The notes under the pieces: model-generated
What the model was told of the DNA's origin: nothing
Seen by the model: only the letters and a program-made list of their open reading frames with translations
The model's database searches: none
Position numbers and translations under genes: made by a program
From: Candidatus Komeilibacteria bacterium
GTDB lineage: Bacteria; Patescibacteriota; Patescibacteriia; UBA1558
NCBI GenBank assembly: GCA_048538275.1
Contig: JBLYPW010000001.1
Coordinates: 299,924-363,923 of the forward strand
Length of the DNA: 64,000 nucleotides
Direction of reading: 5' to 3'
Shown here: positions 2,555 to 63,510 of the stretch, piece after piece
Layout: every line of letters starts with the position of its first letter
Position numbering within the stretch: position 1 is the stretch's first letter

Positions 2555-3575
2555 CTATTATTTCATCCAGATTGCCGTCTAGGATATTATTTAGATTATG
2601 TACAGTTAATTTTATACGATGGTCAGTGACACGATCCTGCGGCCAGTTATAGGTACGTATTTTTTCTGAGCGATCGCCGCTGCCAACTTGAGATTTGCGC
2701 GAGGCAGCTTCAGCTTGATGTTTGTCATCTTCTATTTTTTTTAATAAACGAGAACGTAGTACTTGCATTGCTTTCAGTTTATTTTGTTGTTGACTACGTT
2801 CGTCTTGACAAGAAACAACTATATTGGTGGGTAGGTGAGTAATGCGAATTGCTGAATAAGTAGTATTGACGCTTTGACCACCGTGTCCACCGGCGCAAAA
2901 GGTATCAATGCGCAAATCTTTGGGATTGATTTCTATGTCTATCTCTTCTGCCTCCGGCAAAACCGCCACAGTAGCTGCAGAGGTGTGAATACGTCCAGAT
3001 TTTTCTGTTTCGGGTACGCGTTGCACACGATGAACCCCACTTTCATATTTGAGACGACCATAAGCACCATTGCCAATAATTTCGACAATGATTTCTTTGT
3101 AGCCATTTAATTCTGTACGATTGGCAGCTACAATGTGTGTTTTCCAGCTGTGCTTTTCCGCATAGCGACTATACATGCGCCAAAGGTCAGCGGCAAATAA
3201 GGCAGATTCATCTCCTCCAGTACCGGCACGAATTTCTATAATGGCATTTTTTTTATCCATTGGATCTGATGGAATTAGCATTTGGTTAATCTCTGCTGCT
3301 AGCCTGGGTAATTCTTTGTGTAGTTTTTCCAATTCATCATTGATCATGGCTTTCATTTCTTCATCTGGTTCGGAATTGACTTGCTTTTCTAGATCACTTT
3401 GAGCTGCTTGTTTTTCAAAATAAGTAGATAGTGCAGCACTGATCTCTTTGCTTCTGCCATACTCTTGGGATAATTCTGCCAATTTTGCGCTATCATTAAC
3501 ATTGTCTGGATTTTGTAGATCAGCTTCCAGTTTCTTTATTTTTGTTTGGTATTCGGTGAGTAATTTTTTATCCAT
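2514..3575 (-). CDS. prfA: Peptide chain release factor 1
   Basis: GGQ motif ([10 protein letters not shown]), conserved RF1 core [21 protein letters not shown]; tripeptide reads PET rather than PAT/PVT. Confidence 0.9.
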
Positions 3576-4799: not shown

Positions 4800-4947
4800 A
4801 ATTCGAGCATCTTGCCAAAAATATAATATTATGTTAGCATAGCTGTGCTAATTAATTCACACATTTTGGCCAGCGACCATCCTCGGTCCAAGCTTGACTT
4901 GGTTCGCGGCCGCAAACAGTGTCAAAATGGCGGTAAAAAGGAAAAAT

Positions 4948-5685
4948 ATGACAACTAAACAAATGCCCGTAGTAGAGCTTATTGATCTACTTAAGGCCGG
5001 GGTACATTTCGGCCACACCAAGTCCAAGCGCCATCCAAATATGGAGCCTTATATTTTTGGGGTAAAACAGGGGATTAGCATTATTGACTTGGAAAAGACC
5101 CAACAAAAGTTGGGCGAAGCATTACGCTTTGTTCAAGACATAACTTCACGCAATGGAGTTGTGCTTTTTGTTTCTAGTAAACAACAAGCACAGGCTATCA
5201 TCAAAGAAGCGGCACAAAAGGCGGAGATGCCTTATATTAATACCCGTTGGCTGGGTGGTACTTTCACAAATTTTGATAATATTGTGAATTTGCCCAAGAA
5301 GTTAAAGCGTATGGAAGAGGAGCGGGCTAGTGGCCAATGGTCTCGTTATACCAAAAAAGAAGCTTTGGAAAAAGAAAGAGAAATGGAAAGATTGCGCGAA
5401 ATGGTAGAAGGCATTAAGAATTTGGAAAAATTACCTCAGGCTGTATTTATTGCTGATATCAAGAAAGACCAAACTGCTTTATACGAAGCTAATAAGATGA
5501 GAATCCCGGTTATTGCTATTTGTGATACTAATGTCAATCCAGTTAAAATAGATTGGCCAATACCAGGAAATGACGATGCGGTAAAATCAATTGATTTATT
5601 AACAAATTTAGTAGCGGATGCTTGTTTAGCGGGGAAGAAGAATGCAGTCCCGACCAGTGCTAAGAAAGCGGAGGATAGTAAATAA
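4948..5685 (+). CDS. rpsB: 30S ribosomal protein S2 (start chosen at MTTKQ; ORF track extends to 4894)
   Basis: LLKAGVHFGH...conserved S2 N-terminus; RBS aaaggaaaaat; rpsB-tsf-pyrH synteny. Confidence 0.9.
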   Translation: MTTKQMPVVELIDLLKAGVHFGHTKSKRHPNMEPYIFGVKQGISIIDLEKTQQKLGEALRFVQDITSRNGVVLFVSSKQQAQAIIKEAAQKAEMPYINTRWLGGTFTNFDNIVNLPKKLKRMEEERASGQWSRYTKKEALEKEREMERLREMVEGIKNLEKLPQAVFIADIKKDQTALYEANKMRIPVIAICDTNVNPVKIDWPIPGNDDAVKSIDLLTNLVADACLAGKKNAVPTSAKKAEDSK

Positions 5686-6350: not shown

Positions 6351-7061
6351 ATGCCCTATGCGGCGCCACAAAATATTGTTATCAAGTTATCAGGTAAAAT
6401 GATGACTGATGATTGTCAGTGGAACTGGCCGCTTATAGCTGCTTTAGCAGCAGAATTTCAAACCCAAGCGCGCTTGGGTTTGTTTGCAGTTTTAGTGGTG
6501 GGTGGCGGTAATGTCATTCGGGGTAGAGAAAGTGATGCGAAGTATTTACCTCGCCAATTTGCTGATCAGATGGGCATGCTAGCCACTAATATCAATGCGC
6601 TGGCTTTAGCTGGTAGTTTGCAGGTGGCGGGTTTAGCTACTCAGGCAATGTCAGCTGTTTCTGTAGATGGCATGTTGCCTAAGATTAGTAAAGGCGCTTT
6701 ACGGCGTGCGCGTAAAAATGGTAGTTGGGTTGTTTGTGGCGGTGGTATAGGAAAAGTAGGGCACTCTACTGATTTGGCGGCCATGGCGCGCGCCGTGCAA
6801 ATTGATGCGGATTTAGTGATCAAATTAACTGATGTGGATGGCGTTTATGACAGCGACCCAGATACTAATCCCCAGGCTAAAAAAATAGCTCATCTAACTT
6901 ATGCGCAGGCGATAAGCCAGAATTTACAGGTCATGGATATAGAAGCTTGGCAATTGGCACAAAGTCATAAGATTCCTACCAGGGTCATACAGTGGTCGCC
7001 TGGTAATTTTACTCAACTAATGCAAGGTGAAAATATTGGCACTTTATTAACAGCCGCCTAA
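6351..7061 (+). CDS. pyrH: UMP kinase-like amino-acid-kinase family protein
   Basis: VIKLSGKMM...VVGGGNVIRG glycine-rich loop; synteny after tsf. Confidence 0.7.
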   Translation: MPYAAPQNIVIKLSGKMMTDDCQWNWPLIAALAAEFQTQARLGLFAVLVVGGGNVIRGRESDAKYLPRQFADQMGMLATNINALALAGSLQVAGLATQAMSAVSVDGMLPKISKGALRRARKNGSWVVCGGGIGKVGHSTDLAAMARAVQIDADLVIKLTDVDGVYDSDPDTNPQAKKIAHLTYAQAISQNLQVMDIEAWQLAQSHKIPTRVIQWSPGNFTQLMQGENIGTLLTAA

Positions 7062-30544: not shown

Positions 30545-30573
30545 TTGACATATTTTTTTTATTTATATATACT
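30545..30573 (+). promoter_or_regulatory. Candidate sigma70 promoter upstream of rplJ leader (TTGACA-17-TATACT)
   Basis: TTGACA 30545-30550, TATACT 30568-30573. Confidence 0.3.
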
Positions 30574-30843
30574 GTTTTATAGCCGTAGACAGTAGGCGAG
30601 CACCAGCTCTTAAAATATCAGCCTATCGAGGTAACAGATTTTTTTGTTTACGGCCTAAATAGCCGTATTTTTTATTAAAATAATTTATGGACAAGCAAGA
30701 AAAGATTATATTTGGCTCAATTTTGATTAGTTATACTTTGTTGGTAATAGGAGTTTGGGAATACATAGCCAAGCCGATTATCACCTTTGCCCAGGAAATT
30801 ATTCATTTGTATTAATTTATATAAGTAATTATTAATCAGGTTT

Positions 30844-38868: not shown

Positions 38869-40155
38869 ATGAAAAAAGTAATACTATACAAAATATTATA
38901 TTGGTTAAGTCAACTTATATTACATAAATATAAGCCTGATATAATTGGCATCACTGGCAGTGTGGGAAAGACCAGTACTAAAGAAGCAATTTTTACAGTA
39001 TTAAAAAATAGTATTTCGGTTCGTCAAAGTGCTAAAAATTATAATAATGAATTAGGCGTTCCCTTAACCATTTTGGGTAGTGAGTCGGCTAGCAATTCTT
39101 GGTGGGGTTGGTTTATTATTATCATGCGTGCCCTGTTTTTATGGTTGCAAAAGAATCCTCAGTATCCGCACGTATTAGTTTTGGAAATGGGCGCTGATCA
39201 TATTGGTGATATTGAGTATTTAGTAAACATGGCACCTTGCAAGGTAGGAGTACTAACGGCCGTTTCGGAAAGTCATTTAGAATTTTTTGGTGATTTAGCG
39301 ACAGTAGCTAAGGAAAAAGGTATGATTATTAGTCATTTAGCTGATTCAAATTGGGCTATAATTAATCGTGATAATGAAATGGCTTGGCAACAACGGAGCA
39401 GGACTAAAGCGCAAGTTATTAGTTATGGTATAAAAAAACAAGCTGATTTTCGGGCCAGCGATATAAATATAAGTTGGCGCCAGGGGAAAATTGGTTTAAG
39501 TTTTAAATTAAGTTATCAAGGTACAATTTTACCGATTTTTGTACCGGAAATTATAAGTGAACAACAAGTATATGCTTTATTAGCGGCCGCCGCGATTGGT
39601 ATTATATATGATATGAATTTAGTTGAGATTGGACAAGCTCTTCAGGATTATCATGGTATAGCGGGTAGAACTCGTTGGTTACCGGGTATCAAAAATACTC
39701 AAGTGATTGATGATACTTACAATTCTTCACCGCTAGCTGCAGAAGCCGCTTTAGAATTATTGGTTAAAATTGACTTTTTATCTGAGAAAGAGAAGGGTAG
39801 GCGTTGGGCGATATTAGGTGACATGTTGGAATTGGGGGATCAAAGCGAAGTCGCTCATCGTACTTTAGGGCATAAAGTAGCTGAACTGGGAATTGATTAT
39901 TTAGTCAGTTTTGGCGAGCGAGCCAGAGATATTGCCCGTGGTGCCAAAGAAGCTGGCATGTTAGATGATTATATCTTTACTTTTTCTGATCATGATCGGG
40001 CTGGTCATTTTATACAAAATAAGATCAAGGAAAATGATATTATTTTAATTAAAGGATCACAGGGCGTACGTATGGAAAAGTTGGTCAAAGAAATAATGGC
40101 TGAGCCGCAACGAGCCAATGAATTATTAGTACGACAGACAAAAGAGTGGCAATAA
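38869..40155 (+). CDS. murF: UDP-N-acetylmuramoyl-tripeptide--D-alanyl-D-alanine ligase MurF-like, with very short N-terminal domain
   Basis: GITGSVGKTSTKE P-loop, IDDTYNSSPLAAEAAL MurF-type C-terminal motif. Confidence 0.7.
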   Translation: MKKVILYKILYWLSQLILHKYKPDIIGITGSVGKTSTKEAIFTVLKNSISVRQSAKNYNNELGVPLTILGSESASNSWWGWFIIIMRALFLWLQKNPQYPHVLVLEMGADHIGDIEYLVNMAPCKVGVLTAVSESHLEFFGDLATVAKEKGMIISHLADSNWAIINRDNEMAWQQRSRTKAQVISYGIKKQADFRASDINISWRQGKIGLSFKLSYQGTILPIFVPEIISEQQVYALLAAAAIGIIYDMNLVEIGQALQDYHGIAGRTRWLPGIKNTQVIDDTYNSSPLAAEAALELLVKIDFLSEKEKGRRWAILGDMLELGDQSEVAHRTLGHKVAELGIDYLVSFGERARDIARGAKEAGMLDDYIFTFSDHDRAGHFIQNKIKENDIILIKGSQGVRMEKLVKEIMAEPQRANELLVRQTKEWQ

Positions 40156-40300
40156 GTATTGATGAGAGCTGCGGTCTATCAACAAATTTACTTGATAAAT
40201 AATATACAAAAAATCAGTTAAAGAACATTTAACTTTCAAGAAAAGTTGATTTTATCGATGAGCTTTGTTAATATATTTCTGCCGTATTTTTTATCTATTA

Positions 40301-40375
40301 GCCGCCTTCGTCTAGTGGTTAGGACGCCAGGTTCTCATCCTGGTAACAGGGGTTCGACTCCCCTAGGCGGTACCA
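40301..40375 (+). tRNA. tRNA-Glu (anticodon CUC)
   Basis: Manually folded cloverleaf: acceptor GCCGCCT/AGGCGGT (G1-U72 wobble), D-arm GTCT/GGAC with 8-nt loop, anticodon stem CCAGG/CCTGG, loop TTCTCAT, 4-nt variable, T-arm AGGGG-TTCGACT-CCCCT, encoded CCA. Confidence 0.8.
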
Positions 40376-40386
40376 CGTCGTAGTCG

Positions 40387-40458
40387 GGTTTCGCCACTGC
40401 GTGCGACAGATCAAGTCTGTCTCACTGCGTTTGACTCAACCACGCCTACTCCTTGCTG
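40387..40458. repeat. 72-bp perfect direct repeat, copy 1 (GC-rich, contains 10-bp-stem hairpin)
   Basis: Identical to 40524-40595; internal hairpin gtgcgacaga-tcaag-tctgtctcac. Confidence 0.75.
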
Positions 40459-40523
40459 GTCGTGACTTAACCATTCACTTCGTTCATGGCCCAAGTCACT
40501 CCCAGTTTTTTTCAGTTTGATCT

Positions 40524-40595
40524 GGTTTCGCCACTGCGTGCGACAGATCAAGTCTGTCTCACTGCGTTTGACTCAACCACGCCTACTCCTTGCTG
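40524..40595. repeat. 72-bp perfect direct repeat, copy 2
   Basis: Identical to 40387-40458 (period 137 bp). Confidence 0.75.
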
Positions 40596-40707
40596 CTCAC
40601 CTCGTCATATGAGGTTCGTTCCTTACCCTTCGCCTTTCTCTGTTTATTCAGAATCAAGATTTATTTTAATGTCAGTTTTTTTTAGATAAAATTGTTATAA
40701 TAGATTT

Positions 40708-41164
40708 ATGTCTACTGATATAAAGAAGATAATAGTCGCCTCCGGCCCAGTGATTATTGAAAACGGGGAAGTCTTGTTAAACAAACATGGGGATGATAAA
40801 TTTTGGAAATTTTTAGGTGGTAAAGTACAGGTCAGTGATTCAATCAATCTTTGGACGCCTTGGAACATGCTTGTCGGCGTGAGGTAAGAGAGGAAAACGG
40901 GATTGAATTGAGATTATTTGCGCTTTGCAACCCATGATGGTAGCTAAGCCAAAGGAGCCCGGCGTGTATGTTGTATTGATTCATTGGTTAGCGCGACGCA
41001 AGGGTGATATTGTTTTAGGGGTAGATATTGAAAATTATAAAACTTTTGTTGTGGATAAATTATTGTCCGGAAAATATAGAGGTGAACAATTTGCGCCTAA
41101 TATTAAGCCAGTATTACGTAATTATCAGTATTTGTTAAAGAGGGGAATATTAGCAAAACTTTAG
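40708..41164 (+). pseudogene. NUDIX hydrolase pseudogene (at least two frameshifts)
   Basis: N-terminus MSTDIKKIIVASGPVIIENGEVLL...KFLGGKVQ in frame 1, Nudix-box remainder LEHACRREVREENGIEL in a second frame ending RLFALCNP*, C-terminal part (ORF 40925-41164) in the third frame. Confidence 0.55.
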
Positions 41165-41250
41165 GATAGATAATGCCAGTTAGCATTATTTTTTATTTAT
41201 TGCTATAATACCTATACCATAGGTATAGGTTTAAATAATTAGTTAAATTT

Positions 41251-57996: not shown

Positions 57997-60561
57997 ATGA
58001 AAAAAAGTAGCCAGCTTAATAATAAAAATCAGTCACCGGTAGATTTTGATTTGGCAGATTTTTATATTGCAGAAGAAGAGTTGGTAGAGGAGATTGCAAT
58101 TAAAGCTAAAGCAAAGCTTTTGACTCAGTATGAGCTTGATAAACTTATCAATCAATCAACGCAGCAAACCGCTTGGCCGATTCGCAAAAACAATTCTCAA
58201 TTATTACCAACTTCACCACATATTTTAGATTTGCGTCGGCGTCTCCAAGTCCAAGAACAAGAGTTAGCTGCGCTAGAGAAAGATTTGGTACGGCAACAGA
58301 ATGTTATCAGTTGGCGTCAACGTTGGTTGTCCTTGGTTCATTGGCAATGGCAATGGCCAGAATTTAGTTGGCGACCTGCTTTATGGCAAAAGTTATCAGC
58401 TGTTCAATTTTTGATCAGTTGTGGTCTTTTATTATTTATGATTCTCAAAAATCTTGGTCGACTTCTTAGATTTTCTTTGCGGCGGGTTGTTGATTTTATC
58501 TTACATGTTTGGTTGGGATTTCAGAAAATTAAGCGGCATATTAGAGAAGGTTTGACTAATGTACAAGAGGCGAGCTGGCGACGTGGTTTACGACCGGCCG
58601 CTATGTTTGCTGTTATTGCGACGCTATTATTATTGCCTTATGCTGTATTTGGTATTTATCGCGATGCTCGTATTACAGAGGGTAAGGTTATGGGTATTAG
58701 CCGGACGGCAATAGATGGTTGGCAATTGGGTGTGGATGCTTTAGTGCAAGGAGATTGGCAAGCCGCTTGGCAAGCATTTGATCGGGCCGGCACTGATTTT
58801 AGTGACGCCACGTCTTTGATTAACAATTATCAATCTGTTTTATTGAATATGTCACAAAATATGCCTGGTGCTTTGGGTAGAGCAGCAAGCGGTCAGAGAT
58901 TATTATCCTTAGGTGAAAAATTGTCGGCCACAGTAGCTGATATTAGTAGTACTATACAGTCTAGTCAGGACTCTGAAATGGTATTGACTGATAAGTTGAG
59001 TCTTTGGTCCGAACACTTATCCCAGTGGCGCGACGTTTATAATGATATTGGTCCTGACTTATTAGCTATTCAAGTTGATTTATTGCCCATGCAGTATCAG
59101 GCGCCTTTATTGTATTGGCAAAAAAACTATCATTTGATAGAAAATTTATTGAATGAAAGCCAGTTGACTTTAGATTGGTTGAAGGTCACTTTGGGCGCCA
59201 ATCAACCACAACGTTATTTGATTATGTTTCAAAATAGTAATGAACTAAGAGCCACGGGTGGCTTTATGGGCAGCTTTGCTTTATTGGATGTAGCACAAGG
59301 GGAAATAAGCAATATAGAAATACCGGGTGGTGGCATTTATGCTTTGCAAGGTCAACAAAAAGAGTTTGTCGCAGCACCTTATCCTATGCAGTTATTGAGC
59401 AGTCGTTGGCAGTGGTGGGATGCTAATTGGTGGCCTGACTGGCCCACCAGTGCGCAGAAGATAGCTTGGTTTTATGAGAGAGCGGGCGGTGCTACCGTAG
59501 ACGGCGTCATAGCGATCAATAGCCAAGTATTGAGTGATTGGATGAATTTAGTTGGTCCAATTTCATTGCCCAAGTATGATAAAGAATTAGATAGCGCTAA
59601 TGTTATATTAGCATTACAACATGCTGTTGAATTTGAATATGATAAACAAGCCAATCGTCCCAAGAGTATTATTGGTGATCTATTTCCGGTTTTGATGCAG
59701 AGGATTTATGATTTGCCAGCTGATAAGTATGCTACCGCCCTCGGTCTTGTCTTGGATGAATTCAATCGCTCTGATATACAATTTTATTTTACTAATGATG
59801 AACAGCAAAATTATGTTGCCAATCATCGCTGGGACGGCAGTATCAAAAAAATCAATGGTGATTATTTGAATGTGGTGGCTACGAATATCGGTGGCGGGAA
59901 AACAGACGCCGTTATTAAACAAAAAGTTGATTATCAAATAAGCTTGGGGCCAGATGATCATCTTATCGCTAAAGTAGCTATCACACGCAGTCATCATGGT
60001 GATCAGGAGGATGTATTTGAACGCCAACGTAATGTTTCCTTCTTGCGTCTTTATGTTCCCTTGGGGAGCGATCTTATTCAAGTAAACGGCGCTATGCCCC
60101 CTGATGATAAATTATTTGAGAGCGTGGGTAATGATTTAGCAGCTGATAAAAATTTAATTGCGTTTGATGGTTTGCATTATTATGCTCCATTTGAAAAGTA
60201 CTATAGCGTAGAACAGTTTGGTAAGCAGGTTTTTGGTCAATGGCTGATGGTGGACCCGGGAGAGAGTAAAACTATTACTTTTATTTATCGTTTGCCTATT
60301 GCCGTTGAGCAGGTGACAAATAAAACTGGTTGGCTGCCCTGGTCGCATAGCACTGCCCAGCGACTGGTGTATAGCTTATATGTGCAAAAGCAGTCGGGTG
60401 ATTTAAATACGGAGTTTAATTTTGCCACTAATTTAGATGATAGTTGGCAGATAGAGTGGGCCAAGGACAGTGATGGCAACTTAGTTAAGCTGGGGAATTG
60501 GTTATCGTCTAGTCAGCCGCTGCAGCGCGATTATCAGCTTGGTTTTATAATTACAAAGTAG
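57997..60561 (+). CDS. DUF4012 domain-containing membrane protein
   Basis: N-terminal TM region and conserved RYLIMFQNSNELRATGGFMGSFALLDV motif characteristic of DUF4012. Confidence 0.6.
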   Translation: MKKSSQLNNKNQSPVDFDLADFYIAEEELVEEIAIKAKAKLLTQYELDKLINQSTQQTAWPIRKNNSQLLPTSPHILDLRRRLQVQEQELAALEKDLVRQQNVISWRQRWLSLVHWQWQWPEFSWRPALWQKLSAVQFLISCGLLLFMILKNLGRLLRFSLRRVVDFILHVWLGFQKIKRHIREGLTNVQEASWRRGLRPAAMFAVIATLLLLPYAVFGIYRDARITEGKVMGISRTAIDGWQLGVDALVQGDWQAAWQAFDRAGTDFSDATSLINNYQSVLLNMSQNMPGALGRAASGQRLLSLGEKLSATVADISSTIQSSQDSEMVLTDKLSLWSEHLSQWRDVYNDIGPDLLAIQVDLLPMQYQAPLLYWQKNYHLIENLLNESQLTLDWLKVTLGANQPQRYLIMFQNSNELRATGGFMGSFALLDVAQGEISNIEIPGGGIYALQGQQKEFVAAPYPMQLLSSRWQWWDANWWPDWPTSAQKIAWFYERAGGATVDGVIAINSQVLSDWMNLVGPISLPKYDKELDSANVILALQHAVEFEYDKQANRPKSIIGDLFPVLMQRIYDLPADKYATALGLVLDEFNRSDIQFYFTNDEQQNYVANHRWDGSIKKINGDYLNVVATNIGGGKTDAVIKQKVDYQISLGPDDHLIAKVAITRSHHGDQEDVFERQRNVSFLRLYVPLGSDLIQVNGAMPPDDKLFESVGNDLAADKNLIAFDGLHYYAPFEKYYSVEQFGKQVFGQWLMVDPGESKTITFIYRLPIAVEQVTNKTGWLPWSHSTAQRLVYSLYVQKQSGDLNTEFNFATNLDDSWQIEWAKDSDGNLVKLGNWLSSSQPLQRDYQLGFIITK

Positions 60562-60586
60562 AAATAATATTAACGTATATTTATAA

Positions 60587-60610
60587 ATGCCTAATATTGG
60601 GCATTTTTTT
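60587..60610 (+). terminator. Weak rho-independent terminator
   Basis: atgcc/ggcat stem followed by T7. Confidence 0.35.
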
Positions 60611-60631
60611 CTATTTATGTGGATAAAGTCC

Positions 60632-60802
60632 TTGACAGATAGTACATAATAGTGTATATTACAGTATTAAATAAAATGTTTTTTTGAAAAATATTTGAAA
60701 TTGTATTAATATAGACTTCATAAGGAGAGAGTCAATATTAGTATCCTAAAGAGATATTAATATTGTTTTAGGAAAACGACCTACTCTCTCTGGGTCGTTT
60801 TT
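60632..60802 (+). ncRNA. Candidate small RNA: sigma70-like promoter (TTGACA-17-TATATT, 60632-60660) to intrinsic terminator (cgacc/ggtcg + T-run, 60777-60802)
   Basis: Consensus promoter spacing; ~135-nt transcript region with long-range pairing ggagagagt (60724-60732)/actctctct (60783-60791); no ORF. Confidence 0.3.
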
Positions 60803-61587
60803 CTTTAATTAGCTGTAGGGGGGAGAGTTATTTGTCGGTACTGACCGAGGATTGACGGTTGGGATCGGCGCGGTTTATGCCTTTTAGGCAATATCCGGCC
60901 AGTCACGTGTGACGTGATTGAACTGGATTTTACCTGGACATAATCCATCGTTTAGTGGGTTTTTTATAAAGCCAATGCTAAACCAACTCTTCTACCTATA
61001 GCTAGTTAGAGAGGATATTTATAAAATGGAAATTAAAGTCGGGCGTACATTATATATTTATTAAATTCTCCCATCGCTTTAGTTTCCAGCTTATAAATAT
61101 TCTAGTGAGATCAGCGTAGGTGGGGCTAATAAAATGGTTTGTTGTAGTCCGTGTGATAACCATCAAGCTATTTAGTCCCTCGTACATTGATTTTAAAAAA
61201 CAATATTTACGGCAGTGGTTATCCAAAAAAGTTGTTGGTACAACCCCGGTCACCCGGTGGGATAACAATAGGGTTCGATTCCCGACATTGCCACGCAAGG
61301 AGAGAGCAATCTCTCCTTTTATTACCAGCATAGTGATTGACAACAGAACAATAAGGTGTAGAATGAATTAGCTAAGAGTCATCTTGGCTAGAGAAAACTG
61401 CGCCCGAACTGAAGGCTGAATTACAGGATTCTTTATTCTTCAATAAAACGGAGAATAAACTCTCTCCTTTAAGAATACTGTAACTCATGCAATCCTCTCA
61501 GTCGGGCGCAGTTTTTTGCTTTGTATAATGATATTGCCTTATGGTATAATTTTATTAATACAGAATTTATAAATCCTATGAAAAATT
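60803..61587. other. Non-coding structured region: T-loop-like ggttcgattcc (61272-61282), terminator-like ggagagag-caat-ctctcc-TTTT (61299-61322), large nested inverted repeat 61398-61517 with T-run, tandem TATAAT boxes 61524-61550
   Basis: No credible ORF (two overlapping antiparallel ORFs with random-looking translations); multiple predicted stable hairpins. Confidence 0.3.
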
Positions 61588-63510
61588 ATGGAAAATCCAG
61601 ACTGGCTAAAAAATAAATATAATGATTTACACAATACAAAAGAAGTAAAGTCAGCTGTTCGAGCAGAAGAGCAGTTTACTGGTGAAAAAGTACCACAGAA
61701 TCCAGAACAACAGATTCAAAGCTATTTAGATCGTTTAGAAAAGTTAGTCCTTGATCCAGATAAAAAGCAATCAAGGAAAATGATGGGTAAAGAGCAAAGA
61801 CCAAGAGCCCTATCCTTACTTAGAGAAATGGTAATGAATGAATATATTCGTCCTAATAAAGAAAAACTAGCAGAAGGAGCAGCCAGAGTAGAAGAAAGAG
61901 CAGCTAGGAACTTAGGAATGGATATTGAATATGGAGAAGAACAATTAGAACAAAGAGGTGAAATAGCTATAGAAGATTTAGAAAAATCACTAGATAATTG
62001 GATTTCTTATCTTTCAGATGCTAATGAACCATATCCAACTTGGTTTAGATATTATGCTTTTAGAAATATATTAAAGCTAGGAGATTATGATAAAGACAAA
62101 AAAGAGTTTACCAAGAGAACTAAAGGTAGTACTAAACTATTCCCCGAAATAGATAGGGGAGCCTTAGCATATATACAGCAAAATATAGAAGCTTCTAAAG
62201 ATCCTAAAATACTTGCCAAGCTTCAAGAAGCACAAAAACAAGCAGCTAATGGTGATGTTCCAGAAGATCAGCTTATCACCAAAGAAAAGGTACAAAACTT
62301 TTCTAATCTTTCCTTTGCTAAGCAATATGCAGAAGGAATATCTAAAAATGGTGAAATAACCCCAGAGCTTAGAGCCATAACAGAAGGTAAATGGGTTAAG
62401 TATCAACAAGGTACAGAACCAACAGCTCTTTGGTCATCTCTACAAAACAAAGGCACAGCTTGGTGTACAAAAGGTTTTGCTACAGCCAAAACTCAACTTG
62501 AAGGTGGAGATTTTTATGTATATTACACATTAGATAAAAAAGGCAGTCCTACTATTCCTAGAATAGCTATAAGAATGCAAGGAGAGAATGTAGGAGAAGC
62601 CAGAGGAGTAGAAGACAGTGATCAGAATATGGAAGGTAATATGATAGCTATTGCCGAAGAAAAGCTAAGTACACTTCCAGGAGCTGAAAGCTATAAAGAA
62701 AAAACAGCTGACATGAAAATGCTTACTAGTATATATAACAGACATAAGCAAGGAGAAGAACTTATAAAAGAAGACCTTATCTTTTTATATGAAATAGATA
62801 AACCTATTCAAGGCTTTGGTTATAAAAAAGATCCGAGAATAGAAGAAATACGAGACAAAAGAGATGTAACCAAAGATGCATCAATTGTATTTGAATGCAC
62901 TCCAGATCAAATAGCTAAAAATATTAATGAAGTAAATGAAAATACAGTAGCATATATAGGGCAATGGAATATACCAGCTTTTCAAGTAATTAAAAACCAT
63001 CCCAATATTATTTACTTTTATGAATCTTTCCCAGATAAAAAGATATTCATGCAAACTCTAGAAACAGATCCTAGTATAGATTCACCTGATACAGCCAAAC
63101 AGTCTCTTAAAGATAAGAACATCTATCTTTCAGATTGGGGAAAGGATATTTTAGAAAAAACAGAGTTTAGTAAAGAAAAACAAGAATATGATTTAGTGAG
63201 ATTTACAGTAGAGCAATTAGGATTTCCAAATGGTGCTACTACTGATGAAATATATAATAAAGCTCAAGAGCTCGGACTTGAATTATGTCCAGCTGAAATT
63301 GGACCTCAATTAAGATTACAAAGTACTAGTAAGGAATGGATGCTTATTGCTATGAAACAGATTATAGACCGTGATGGCGCTCCGTCGCTGTTCGATCTGC
63401 GTGATGATGGTTATCAGCTGGTACTGAGCAGCGACGGTGCTTGGTCTGACGGCAGGTGGTTTTCGGACGGTAGGTTTGTGTTTCATTACCGCCCCAGTAG
63501 CAAAGCGTAG
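61588..63510 (+). CDS. Orphan 640-aa hypothetical protein; AT-rich body with abrupt GC-rich 3' end
   Basis: Long uninterrupted ORF, charged/low-complexity N-terminus, no signal peptide; composition shift at ~63360. Confidence 0.5.
   Translation: MENPDWLKNKYNDLHNTKEVKSAVRAEEQFTGEKVPQNPEQQIQSYLDRLEKLVLDPDKKQSRKMMGKEQRPRALSLLREMVMNEYIRPNKEKLAEGAARVEERAARNLGMDIEYGEEQLEQRGEIAIEDLEKSLDNWISYLSDANEPYPTWFRYYAFRNILKLGDYDKDKKEFTKRTKGSTKLFPEIDRGALAYIQQNIEASKDPKILAKLQEAQKQAANGDVPEDQLITKEKVQNFSNLSFAKQYAEGISKNGEITPELRAITEGKWVKYQQGTEPTALWSSLQNKGTAWCTKGFATAKTQLEGGDFYVYYTLDKKGSPTIPRIAIRMQGENVGEARGVEDSDQNMEGNMIAIAEEKLSTLPGAESYKEKTADMKMLTSIYNRHKQGEELIKEDLIFLYEIDKPIQGFGYKKDPRIEEIRDKRDVTKDASIVFECTPDQIAKNINEVNENTVAYIGQWNIPAFQVIKNHPNIIYFYESFPDKKIFMQTLETDPSIDSPDTAKQSLKDKNIYLSDWGKDILEKTEFSKEKQEYDLVRFTVEQLGFPNGATTDEIYNKAQELGLELCPAEIGPQLRLQSTSKEWMLIAMKQIIDRDGAPSLFDLRDDGYQLVLSSDGAWSDGRWFSDGRFVFHYRPSSKA

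Follow-up and report, generated by a model that had tools for sequence, protein, structure and literature searches.

In Escherichia coli, 3'ETS-leuZ is a fragment of a tRNA 3'ETS (external transcribed spacer) that ends at an intrinsic terminator. It is described as a stable regulatory RNA that works with Hfq as a sponge for RyhB and RybB (PMC6191717). A comparable arrangement is predicted in a 64-kb stretch of DNA (the window) from a metagenome-assembled genome (MAG) of Candidatus Komeilibacteria (Patescibacteria), in which a GC-rich block containing two long direct repeats lies immediately 3' of a tRNA-Glu gene. Each has a structured segment that separates the last tRNA of the unit from a Rho-independent terminator on the same strand, which for the block is a sequence prediction, and the block RNA, like the E. 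coli one, would be released on tRNA maturation and would end at the terminator hairpin. The block has, however, no sequence or Rfam relationship to 3'ETS-leuZ, and the latter is without a counterpart of the 70-nt rod with a conserved bulged helix predicted for the block. Plain tRNA terminators, as found at the Komeilibacteria loci L002 and L006, share the position and strand of the block, a hairpin followed by a U-run after tRNA-Glu; they differ in that the window and one relative, L023, have an extra covarying 70-nt rod, which in the window is mostly duplicated behind the terminator. The nearest known analogue in kind is 3'ETS-leuZ, and the block fits best among the structured tRNA 3' trailers, or 3'ETS RNAs, as a new member with a narrow distribution and an incidental local duplication.

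The reading favored here, with slightly better than even confidence, is that copy 1 of the repeat is part of a structured trailer RNA of tRNA-Glu and copy 2 is a partial local duplicate. The tRNA gene, the parts of the predicted trailer and the two repeat copies are as follows:

40301-40375, + strand: tRNA-Glu(CUC) gene, with the CCA encoded in the gene (ARAGORN; Rfam RF00005, 63.3 bits).
40380-40449, + strand: SL1, the rod-like hairpin of the tRNA-Glu 3' trailer, 70 nt with 26 predicted pairs (minimum free energy, MFE, fold).
40401-40425, + strand: apical hairpin of SL1 (GUG, C.U mismatch, GACAGA, loop UCAAG, UCUGUC, CAC; -12.2 kcal/mol).
40455-40512, + strand: intrinsic terminator T1, between the two repeat copies (hairpin 40455-40506, -17.5 kcal/mol; U7 40506-40512).
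40387-40458, + strand: repeat copy 1 (A1), which takes in the greater part of SL1, the UCCUUG linker and the start of the T1 stem.
40524-40595, + strand: repeat copy 2 (A2), a partial duplicate of SL1 and the linker without the outer 5' basal-stem strand.

The block adjoins tRNA-Glu as originally predicted: the tRNA 3' end is at 40375 and copy 1 begins 11 nt later. Read on the + strand, the RNA 3' of the CCA consists of four free bases (CGUC), the rod, the UCCUUG linker, a compound hairpin and seven U. SL1 begins 4 nt past the CCA and is composed of copy 1 bases together with the four bases upstream of them; the MFE of 40376-40455 is -25 kcal/mol (z = -2.4). The hairpin that had been noticed from the letters is present, although its stem is not the continuous 10 bp claimed for it: 3 bp, the C.U mismatch and 6 bp enclose a 5-nt loop. 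T1 was overlooked by a simple terminator scan because its loop exceeds 8 nt. The tRNA-Glu gene, the U-tract of T1 and all flanking genes lie on the + strand, and a candidate start for the transcript can be read upstream of the tRNA:

40247-40275, + strand: putative tRNA-Glu promoter, TTGATT, 17-nt spacer, TGtTAATAT (extended -10), read from the sequence.

This putative promoter scores under the 9/12 cut-off of the consensus scan. A matching TTGATT-17-TAATAT/TAATCT layout precedes tRNA-Glu in L002 and L006.

Support for the favored reading comes from a second lineage. Two covariance models were built from the window sequence only, one (R1) of the 78-nt repeat unit and the other (R2) of 40376-40512 with its MFE structure; the E-values of such home-made models are rough. 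The top match of R1 was to positions 4946-5019 of L023, another Komeilibacteria contig, whose MurF is 58% identical to the window MurF (19.3 bits, E ~9e-4). R2 matched the same contig from end to end at 4939-5074 (33.7 bits, E ~1e-6 over 146 kb), starting at the first base past the CCA of its tRNA-Glu. Neither model had a match in 12 other loci. The L023 trailer runs from an intact tRNA-Glu(UUC) through CGUC, a rod and a UUCCUUUU linker to a terminator. Folded alone, it has the same architecture as the window trailer; z is -6.2 over the rod (4943-5007) and -9.5 when the terminator is included.

The two rods have kept their shape while exchanging much of their sequence. Of the 26 pairs, 12 differ on both sides between SL1 and the L023 rod and 9 do not vary, and 92% of cells form pairs; slid-partner controls have just 1-3 pairs that differ on both sides. 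The apical hairpin of L023 (GUG, U.C mismatch, AUCGAG, loop UCUAG, CUCGAU, CAC) has five of its six inner pairs swapped on both sides relative to the window, and the basal stem is AU-rich in L023 and GC-rich in the window. Sequence kept in both lineages is found in the flanks (CUGCGUG / CACUNCG) and in the loop (UCNAG). T1 aligns with the L023 terminator at 5015-5074, with AUUCACUU common to both on the 5' side and helix 3 paired in all rows of the alignment. Copy 1 and L023 share all the features of a candidate motif, the Komeilibacteria tRNA-Glu trailer rod: i) a rod 4 nt past the CCA; ii) a CUGCGUG...UCNAG...CACUNCG core; iii) covarying stems; and iv) a terminator. Copy 2 has the core but not the basal stem. 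At a MurF identity of 58%, neutral intergenic DNA is expected to be randomized, which argues that the fold is under selection; and since the fold survives with a changed sequence, RNA rather than a sequence-specific DNA site would be what is selected. The rod and terminator appear to be under selection for RNA structure, and the conserved hairpin is the functional candidate at this locus, the duplication being less important and probably incidental.

Several points weigh against this reading. L023 is the sole independent homologue found; the pair counts come from a model-fitted alignment, and with two lineages shuffle statistics are weak. A plain local alignment of the window and L023 trailers was not significant (p ~0.1-0.25). 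Four Komeilibacteria lineages (of the L002/L006 and L007/L012 types) are without the rod, so the element is narrowly distributed and dispensable: L002 and L006 (MurF 56-57% identical) have only a short terminator, a hairpin and U-run, 3' of tRNA-Glu, and L007-L016 (MurF 60%) have other sequence there. The + strand is C-/U-rich with a negative GC skew, which is unusual for a structured RNA, and the - strand folds slightly better overall (-96 vs -86 kcal/mol). The perfect identity of A1 and A2 beside unrelated flanks is without a mechanistic explanation, and a 7-bp hairpin at the terminator-helix offset behind copy 2, described below, hints that this copy may be more than debris. What is established comprises the repeats, their predicted folds, the terminator, a syntenic homologue with compensatory changes, and the lack of coding potential and, in the window and the collections searched, of other copies; from these we infer transcription, processing, stability and any function in trans.

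The repeat pair is as the original prediction described it, identical over 72 nt (A1 vs A2) with a start-to-start distance of 137, and none of 100 shuffled windows contained a comparable match. A longer match, 40384-40461 with 40521-40598, spans 78 nt at 97% identity, a single mismatch lying 3 nt in from either end; the gap between A1 and A2 is 59-65 nt. The downstream flanks of the copies align with a score of 7 vs 4.6 +/- 1.9 in shuffles, a value reached or exceeded in 149 of 1000 shuffles and thus not significant. Because the flanks are dissimilar, the repeat is sharp-edged and not a clean 137-nt tandem unit. Its boundaries also differ from those of the structural unit, as the repeated segment starts 4 bases into the basal stem and ends 12 nt beyond the rod. 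The block is GC-rich as claimed, with 50-59% G+C in 120-150-nt windows vs the 38% mean of the whole stretch, and forms the top peak of the 64 kb, yet some coding stretches reach 55-57%. The 8-nt sub-repeat said to flank the hairpin is present as CACTGCGT (40395-40402 and 40423-40430), though it overlaps the stem ends. A third copy of the unit was not found within the 64 kb by blastn-short, nhmmer or the covariance model.

Copy 2 lies directly 3' of the T1 U-tract and begins inside the basal stem, with the loss of three basal pairs (columns 5/74, 8/71 and 11/68). In its own context it has an MFE of -19.6 kcal/mol (z = -1.2) and a diffuse ensemble in which the rod is not formed. No promoter was seen upstream of it by eye, and none was found on the + strand in the consensus scan. 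It is followed by a second, smaller hairpin:

40599-40615, + strand: 7-bp hairpin ACCUCGU-CAU-AUGAGGU after copy 2 (-7.3 kcal/mol), with a pyrimidine-rich tail UCGUUCCUUACCCUU and no U-run.

This hairpin has exactly the same offset from copy 2 as T1 helix 3 has from copy 1, the model-fitted alignment placing it there, and it may be a weak or decayed terminator. Such an arrangement would be expected if both copies were functional, a 137-nt module of rod and terminator having been tandemly duplicated at an earlier time, the terminators then diverging and the rods being kept identical by gene conversion or constraint. The pair would then be two sRNA-like modules, or a two-step termination/read-through device before the NUDIX-csoR-copA genes. 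The 40599-40615 helix is paired in all three alignment rows with different pair types; the identity of the copies stops symmetrically, 3 nt in from both ends, which is how a conversion tract might look; and A2 with its flank reaches 73 bits under R2. The tails, however, are not significantly similar, copy 2 misfolds in context for want of the outer 5' basal strand, and it has neither a promoter found before it nor a U-tract after its hairpin. Moreover, the alignment is forced by the model, and a chance hairpin at that place has a roughly estimated frequency of ~1-5%. Two functional copies are in our view unlikely. Copy 2 is best read, and most simply, as a recent, partial, lineage-specific duplicate made at the DNA level and without a function of its own. 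Such a duplicate suits a locus that is a rearrangement hotspot in relatives and that here includes a freshly broken gene as well. Among the three identities offered for the repeats by the original prediction, a duplicated small RNA comes nearest; copy 1 does form part of a structured, terminator-ended trailer, but copy 2 is incomplete and without expression signals.

The MurF encoded just upstream of tRNA-Glu is 100% identical to MFW0837709.1, and the second-best match among 5.8 billion protein clusters is only 60% identical; the organism thus has no close relatives in public data. A MurF-based locus search of genome contigs gave only a 28%-identical Clostridia locus, and the contig P0244 stops 105 nt past murF, with no trailer on it. 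The gene order is an ftsI-like penicillin-binding protein (PBP), murF, tRNA-Glu, the GC-rich block, NUDIX, a csoR-like repressor, a SHOCT protein and a copper ATPase, followed by a DsbA-like protein, a permease and HlyD/ABC/MacB genes. The murF-tRNA-Glu synteny is present in every examined relative with a tRNA call. The first gene after the block is:

40708-41164, + strand: NUDIX hydrolase gene with two frameshifts, a neighbor lying outside the element.

The frameshifts are near 40851 (TTTT to TTT) and 40915 (GG to G), ~65 nt apart; both sites read as short homopolymer runs, and one added base repairs each. After repair, the 152-aa product matches homologues of 145-151 aa from the Candidate Phyla Radiation (CPR) over the full length at 56-60% identity. 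The gene had been called decayed; apart from the two frameshifts it is intact, so decay was an overstatement. Either the gene became a pseudogene very recently or the frameshifts are local sequencing errors.

These two single-base frameshifts within ~65 nt bear on another explanation, that copy 2, or the A-B-A arrangement as a whole, is an assembly artifact or a strain-mixture join in the MAG, since they make poor local quality or population heterogeneity possible. The sequence comes from a single MAG and was seen once in all collections, and relatives have contigs that are prone to end here. A 78-nt repeat is, however, shorter than usual reads and the largest assembly k-mers and should be resolved; the other long genes checked (553-854 aa) are single uninterrupted ORFs, which argues against a noisy assembly; and the source contig is 487 kb long. 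An artifact is accordingly judged improbable.

A promoter-like element lies between the block and the NUDIX gene:

40693-40701, + strand: extended -10 box TGtTATAAT, with 6 nt between it and the NUDIX ATG (read from the sequence).

The NUDIX mRNA would thus be leaderless and its promoter would lie downstream of the block. As the box ends 6 nt before the ATG, the block is upstream of the probable NUDIX transcription start and not in its 5' untranslated region. This position bears on the proposal that the repeats are a cis-regulatory RNA, a tandem riboswitch or attenuator, for the NUDIX or cop genes. In favor of it, the block runs from unit and terminator to unit and hairpin ahead of a gene with the same orientation. 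Against it stand the perfect extended -10 box; the closest NUDIX homologues, which have upstream gaps of 15-70 nt, different neighbors and no similarity to the block; the lack of an Rfam match at E <= 10; and the L023 element, which is tied to tRNA-Glu. We hold a cis-regulatory role to be highly improbable.

The NUDIX start resembles others in the window. The TA..AT-agattt-ATG layout also occurs at the first genes 45477 and 52406, and at several first genes (40708, 45477, 52406, 56724 and others) a -10 box ends 6-8 nt before the ATG, e.g. TATAAT-agattt-ATG and TAATAT-agattt-ATG. A Shine-Dalgarno-like motif is absent at 17 of the 20 gene starts checked. The pattern suggests that leaderless mRNAs are frequent in this genome. 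Farther downstream, at 41180-41209, a promoter-like TTAGCA-18-TGnTATAAT precedes the genes for the csoR-like repressor, the SHOCT protein and the copper ATPase. Abutting it at 41210-41230 is a perfect 9-bp inverted repeat, ACCTATACC-ATA-GGTATAGGT, which is probably a CsoR operator distinct from the repeat hairpin.

The repeats had also been suggested to be remnants of integrase attachment sites, and the same evidence bears on tRNA-hotspot recombination in general and on the idea of paired DNA operators for a regulator. The block does form the boundary between the conserved murF-tRNA-Glu segment and variable genes (NUDIX, csoR, SHOCT and copA here vs pilin/Gmad2/M23 in relatives), and its palindromes are 137 bp apart, ~13 helical turns. 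The attachment-site claim is not supported, in that the repeats exclude the tRNA 3' end and enclose only 59-65 nt holding a terminator. The tRNA 3' end is itself unrepeated: with up to 3 mismatches allowed, its 27-mer has a single occurrence in the window. The ORFs tested from 40 to 64 kb yielded neither an integrase nor a recombinase domain. A palindrome that persists with five of six positions changed on both arms is not what a sequence-specific DNA site would show, and the csoR operon has its separate palindrome at 41210-41230. Among the explanations considered here, attachment sites or operators are the least probable.

A small non-autonomous mobile or repetitive element, inserted twice beside the tRNA terminator, was another of the original proposals. 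Candidates would be repetitive extragenic palindromes (REP) and bacterial interspersed mosaic elements (BIME), miniature inverted-repeat transposable elements (MITE), or elements like the palindrome-associated transposable elements (PATE). The block resembles REP/BIME and MITE in its short GC-rich units with an imperfect palindrome, intergenic and beside a terminator; its repeat edges are sharp with unrelated flanks; the internal hairpin is flanked by an 8-nt direct repeat; and the tRNA-Glu locus is a hotspot of GIY-YIG-associated insertions in the clade. It differs from these families in having two copies at one locus, termini that are not inverted and, within the 64 kb, no dispersed copies. 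A MITE would have terminal inverted repeats and a target-site duplication, and a REP a conserved GTAG head and an association with RAYT; the unit shows neither set of features. Its ends, GGTTTCGCC... and ...CCTTGCTG, do not form inverted repeats, beyond the edges only 'TC' is common, there is no convincing target duplication, and the ORFs tested yielded no transposase-like domain. No further copy occurs in the 64 kb, by estimate about a tenth of a genome.

Searches of collections agree with this. Exact-pattern scans gave 0 matches for the 29-nt hairpin core in GTDB representative genomes, JGI metagenomes and IMG/VR, and 0 for the 22-nt 3' tail in JGI metagenomes and IMG/VR; the two-lineage consensus motif had 0 matches in viral contigs. 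By blastn the block had one 24-nt chance match (E = 0.9) among phages at distant settings, and none among plasmids and 5,426 E. coli genomes. The complement of the unit 3' tail, searched in the window, was found in the unit itself only. The original prediction held that a unit confined to this locus and not expressed would be an anonymous local duplication; the duplication is indeed unique, but the unit has a homologue elsewhere, in L023. That sole homologue is syntenic, diverged and covarying, which points to vertical inheritance under structural selection rather than to recent spread. Because of these properties, and because further copies turned up neither in the 64 kb nor in the collections searched, the mobile-element reading is not supported, a mobile element having only a very slim chance of being the right explanation.

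The GIY-YIG-associated insertions of relatives (L007-L016 and L023) are a separate phenomenon at the same locus. At L007 6239-6820, L012 3231-3745 and L023 4340-4940, a GIY-YIG gene of 82-96 aa and an intact tRNA-Glu lie between older tRNA-Glu fragments: a 5' fragment, GCCGCTATCGT, comes directly behind the murF stop, with a 3' fragment beyond the element. The elements are flanked by repeated GC-rich hairpin modules, GGTTAGCCACCC..GGGTGGTCACCCGGAGGGTGAGAC, and gave no Rfam group I intron match. They look like homing-type elements that disrupt tRNA-Glu while bringing a replacement copy. They resemble the block in sharing its locus, in carrying GC-rich hairpin modules in an AT-rich genome and in their short local duplications; they differ in having no sequence similarity to it, and the window has no GIY-YIG gene or tRNA fragments. 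In 36 tests that set the unit, the spacer and the tail against the tRNA-Glu gene, the L007/L012 GIY-YIG modules and window positions 60.8-61.3 kb, the lowest p was 0.03, which is chance level. The metagenomic contigs L007-L016, L023 and L025 repeatedly end within a few hundred bases past murF/tRNA-Glu, which suggests that throughout the clade the sequence here varies between strains or is repeated.

Other identities were tried and rejected. The block is not CRISPR, as had been said: an array would need at least 3 repeats of ~23-50 nt with unique spacers of similar size, usually beside cas genes, and here there are two 72-nt copies, no array by TRF and no cas-like domain in the neighboring ORFs tested. 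TIGR-Tas arrays alternate 8-12-nt edge and loop repeats with 9-nt spacers in 36-nt units, usually 5-15 times, beside a Tas gene with a Nop domain (PMC12045711). In the block, by comparison, the 8-nt sub-repeat recurs 28 nt apart around a palindrome, the two identical units have no variable spacers, and there is no Nop-domain match among the neighbors. A tRNA-like or tmRNA-like unit was looked for with ARAGORN at 70-85% thresholds and with the Rfam tRNA model, and nothing was found inside the block. The Rfam/Infernal check that had been proposed for the block gave no family: over 40100-40900, tRNA was the sole match at E <= 10. At the gathering threshold, the whole window contains only tRNA and a ribosomal protein L10 leader (30565-30682, RF00557, 54 bits), the sole Rfam family in the window besides tRNA. 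A promoter within the unit (TTGACT) was dismissed as having no -10 partner.

The block also lacks coding potential. Stops occur in all three - strand frames of each unit. A 67-aa + strand ORF has no match among 1.84 billion representative proteins, and a six-frame concatenate of the block none among 5.8 billion clusters, in both cases even at E <= 10. A - strand ORF of 10 codons, present in both copies (AAGGAG, 5 nt, GTG), was rejected as the genome hardly uses Shine-Dalgarno motifs and the L023 homologue is without such an ORF.

Another part of the window may hold a divergent RNA. About 1 kb at 60561-61588 is without a convincing ORF, and within it, at 61211-61325, a tRNA-like 3' domain (GGCAGTG ... 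AGGGTTCGATTCCCGACATTGCCA) is followed by a terminator, AAGGAGAGA-gcaa-TCTCTCCTTTTATT. ARAGORN found nothing in this region at default settings and made conflicting calls at lowered thresholds (a tRNA-Ile carrying a 97-nt intron, a permuted tmRNA and a tRNA-Tyr); Rfam gave only a 13-nt match to the tmRNA 3' end (E = 0.055). The region may encode an intron-bearing tRNA or a divergent tmRNA. Introns in Patescibacteria tRNAs are known to escape annotation (PMC13011429). The motif GGTCACCCGG(T/A)GGG occurs here at 61248-61262 and also in the GIY-YIG hairpin modules (L007 ~6745-6765 and L012 ~3262-3280); this could reflect a small mobile hairpin module common to both, or else chance.

If the favored reading holds, with copy 1 in a tRNA-Glu trailer RNA, the following pathway can be proposed. 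Transcription would run from the tRNA promoter through tRNA-Glu, the rod and the UCCUUG linker and stop at T1 (40455-40512). An endonucleolytic cut would separate the CCA-encoding tRNA from the trailer; the cut would be needed because a stable hairpin 4 nt past the CCA would block exonucleolytic trimming. An RNA of ~130 nt, consisting of the rod, linker and terminator hairpin, would persist after the cut and might function in trans or be bound by a protein at the conserved helix segment. This segment (UGCGUG / CAC-U-GCG), which contains a bulged U as well as a pyrimidine-pyrimidine mismatch, is kept within a covarying rod, which suggests a protein-binding site. The conserved U-CCUU of the linker could be a pairing or binding site. 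Copy 2 is probably a neutral by-product, expressed at most through terminator read-through.

A bolder version would make the block a previously undescribed functional CPR RNA, derived from the tRNA-Glu precursor and recognized by a protein through the bulged helix, the duplication providing a second dose or a read-through switch to the NUDIX and copper-resistance genes; we regard it as quite doubtful. Members of the Patescibacteria are without much of the usual RNA-chaperone and RNase machinery, and to our knowledge hardly any non-coding RNAs are known from the group. With two lineages so far and a narrow distribution, the impact of the finding is modest. If true, the trailer would be a covariation-supported structured RNA motif of Patescibacteria, absent from Rfam, and would be a tRNA trailer kept as a structured RNA outside the proteobacteria.

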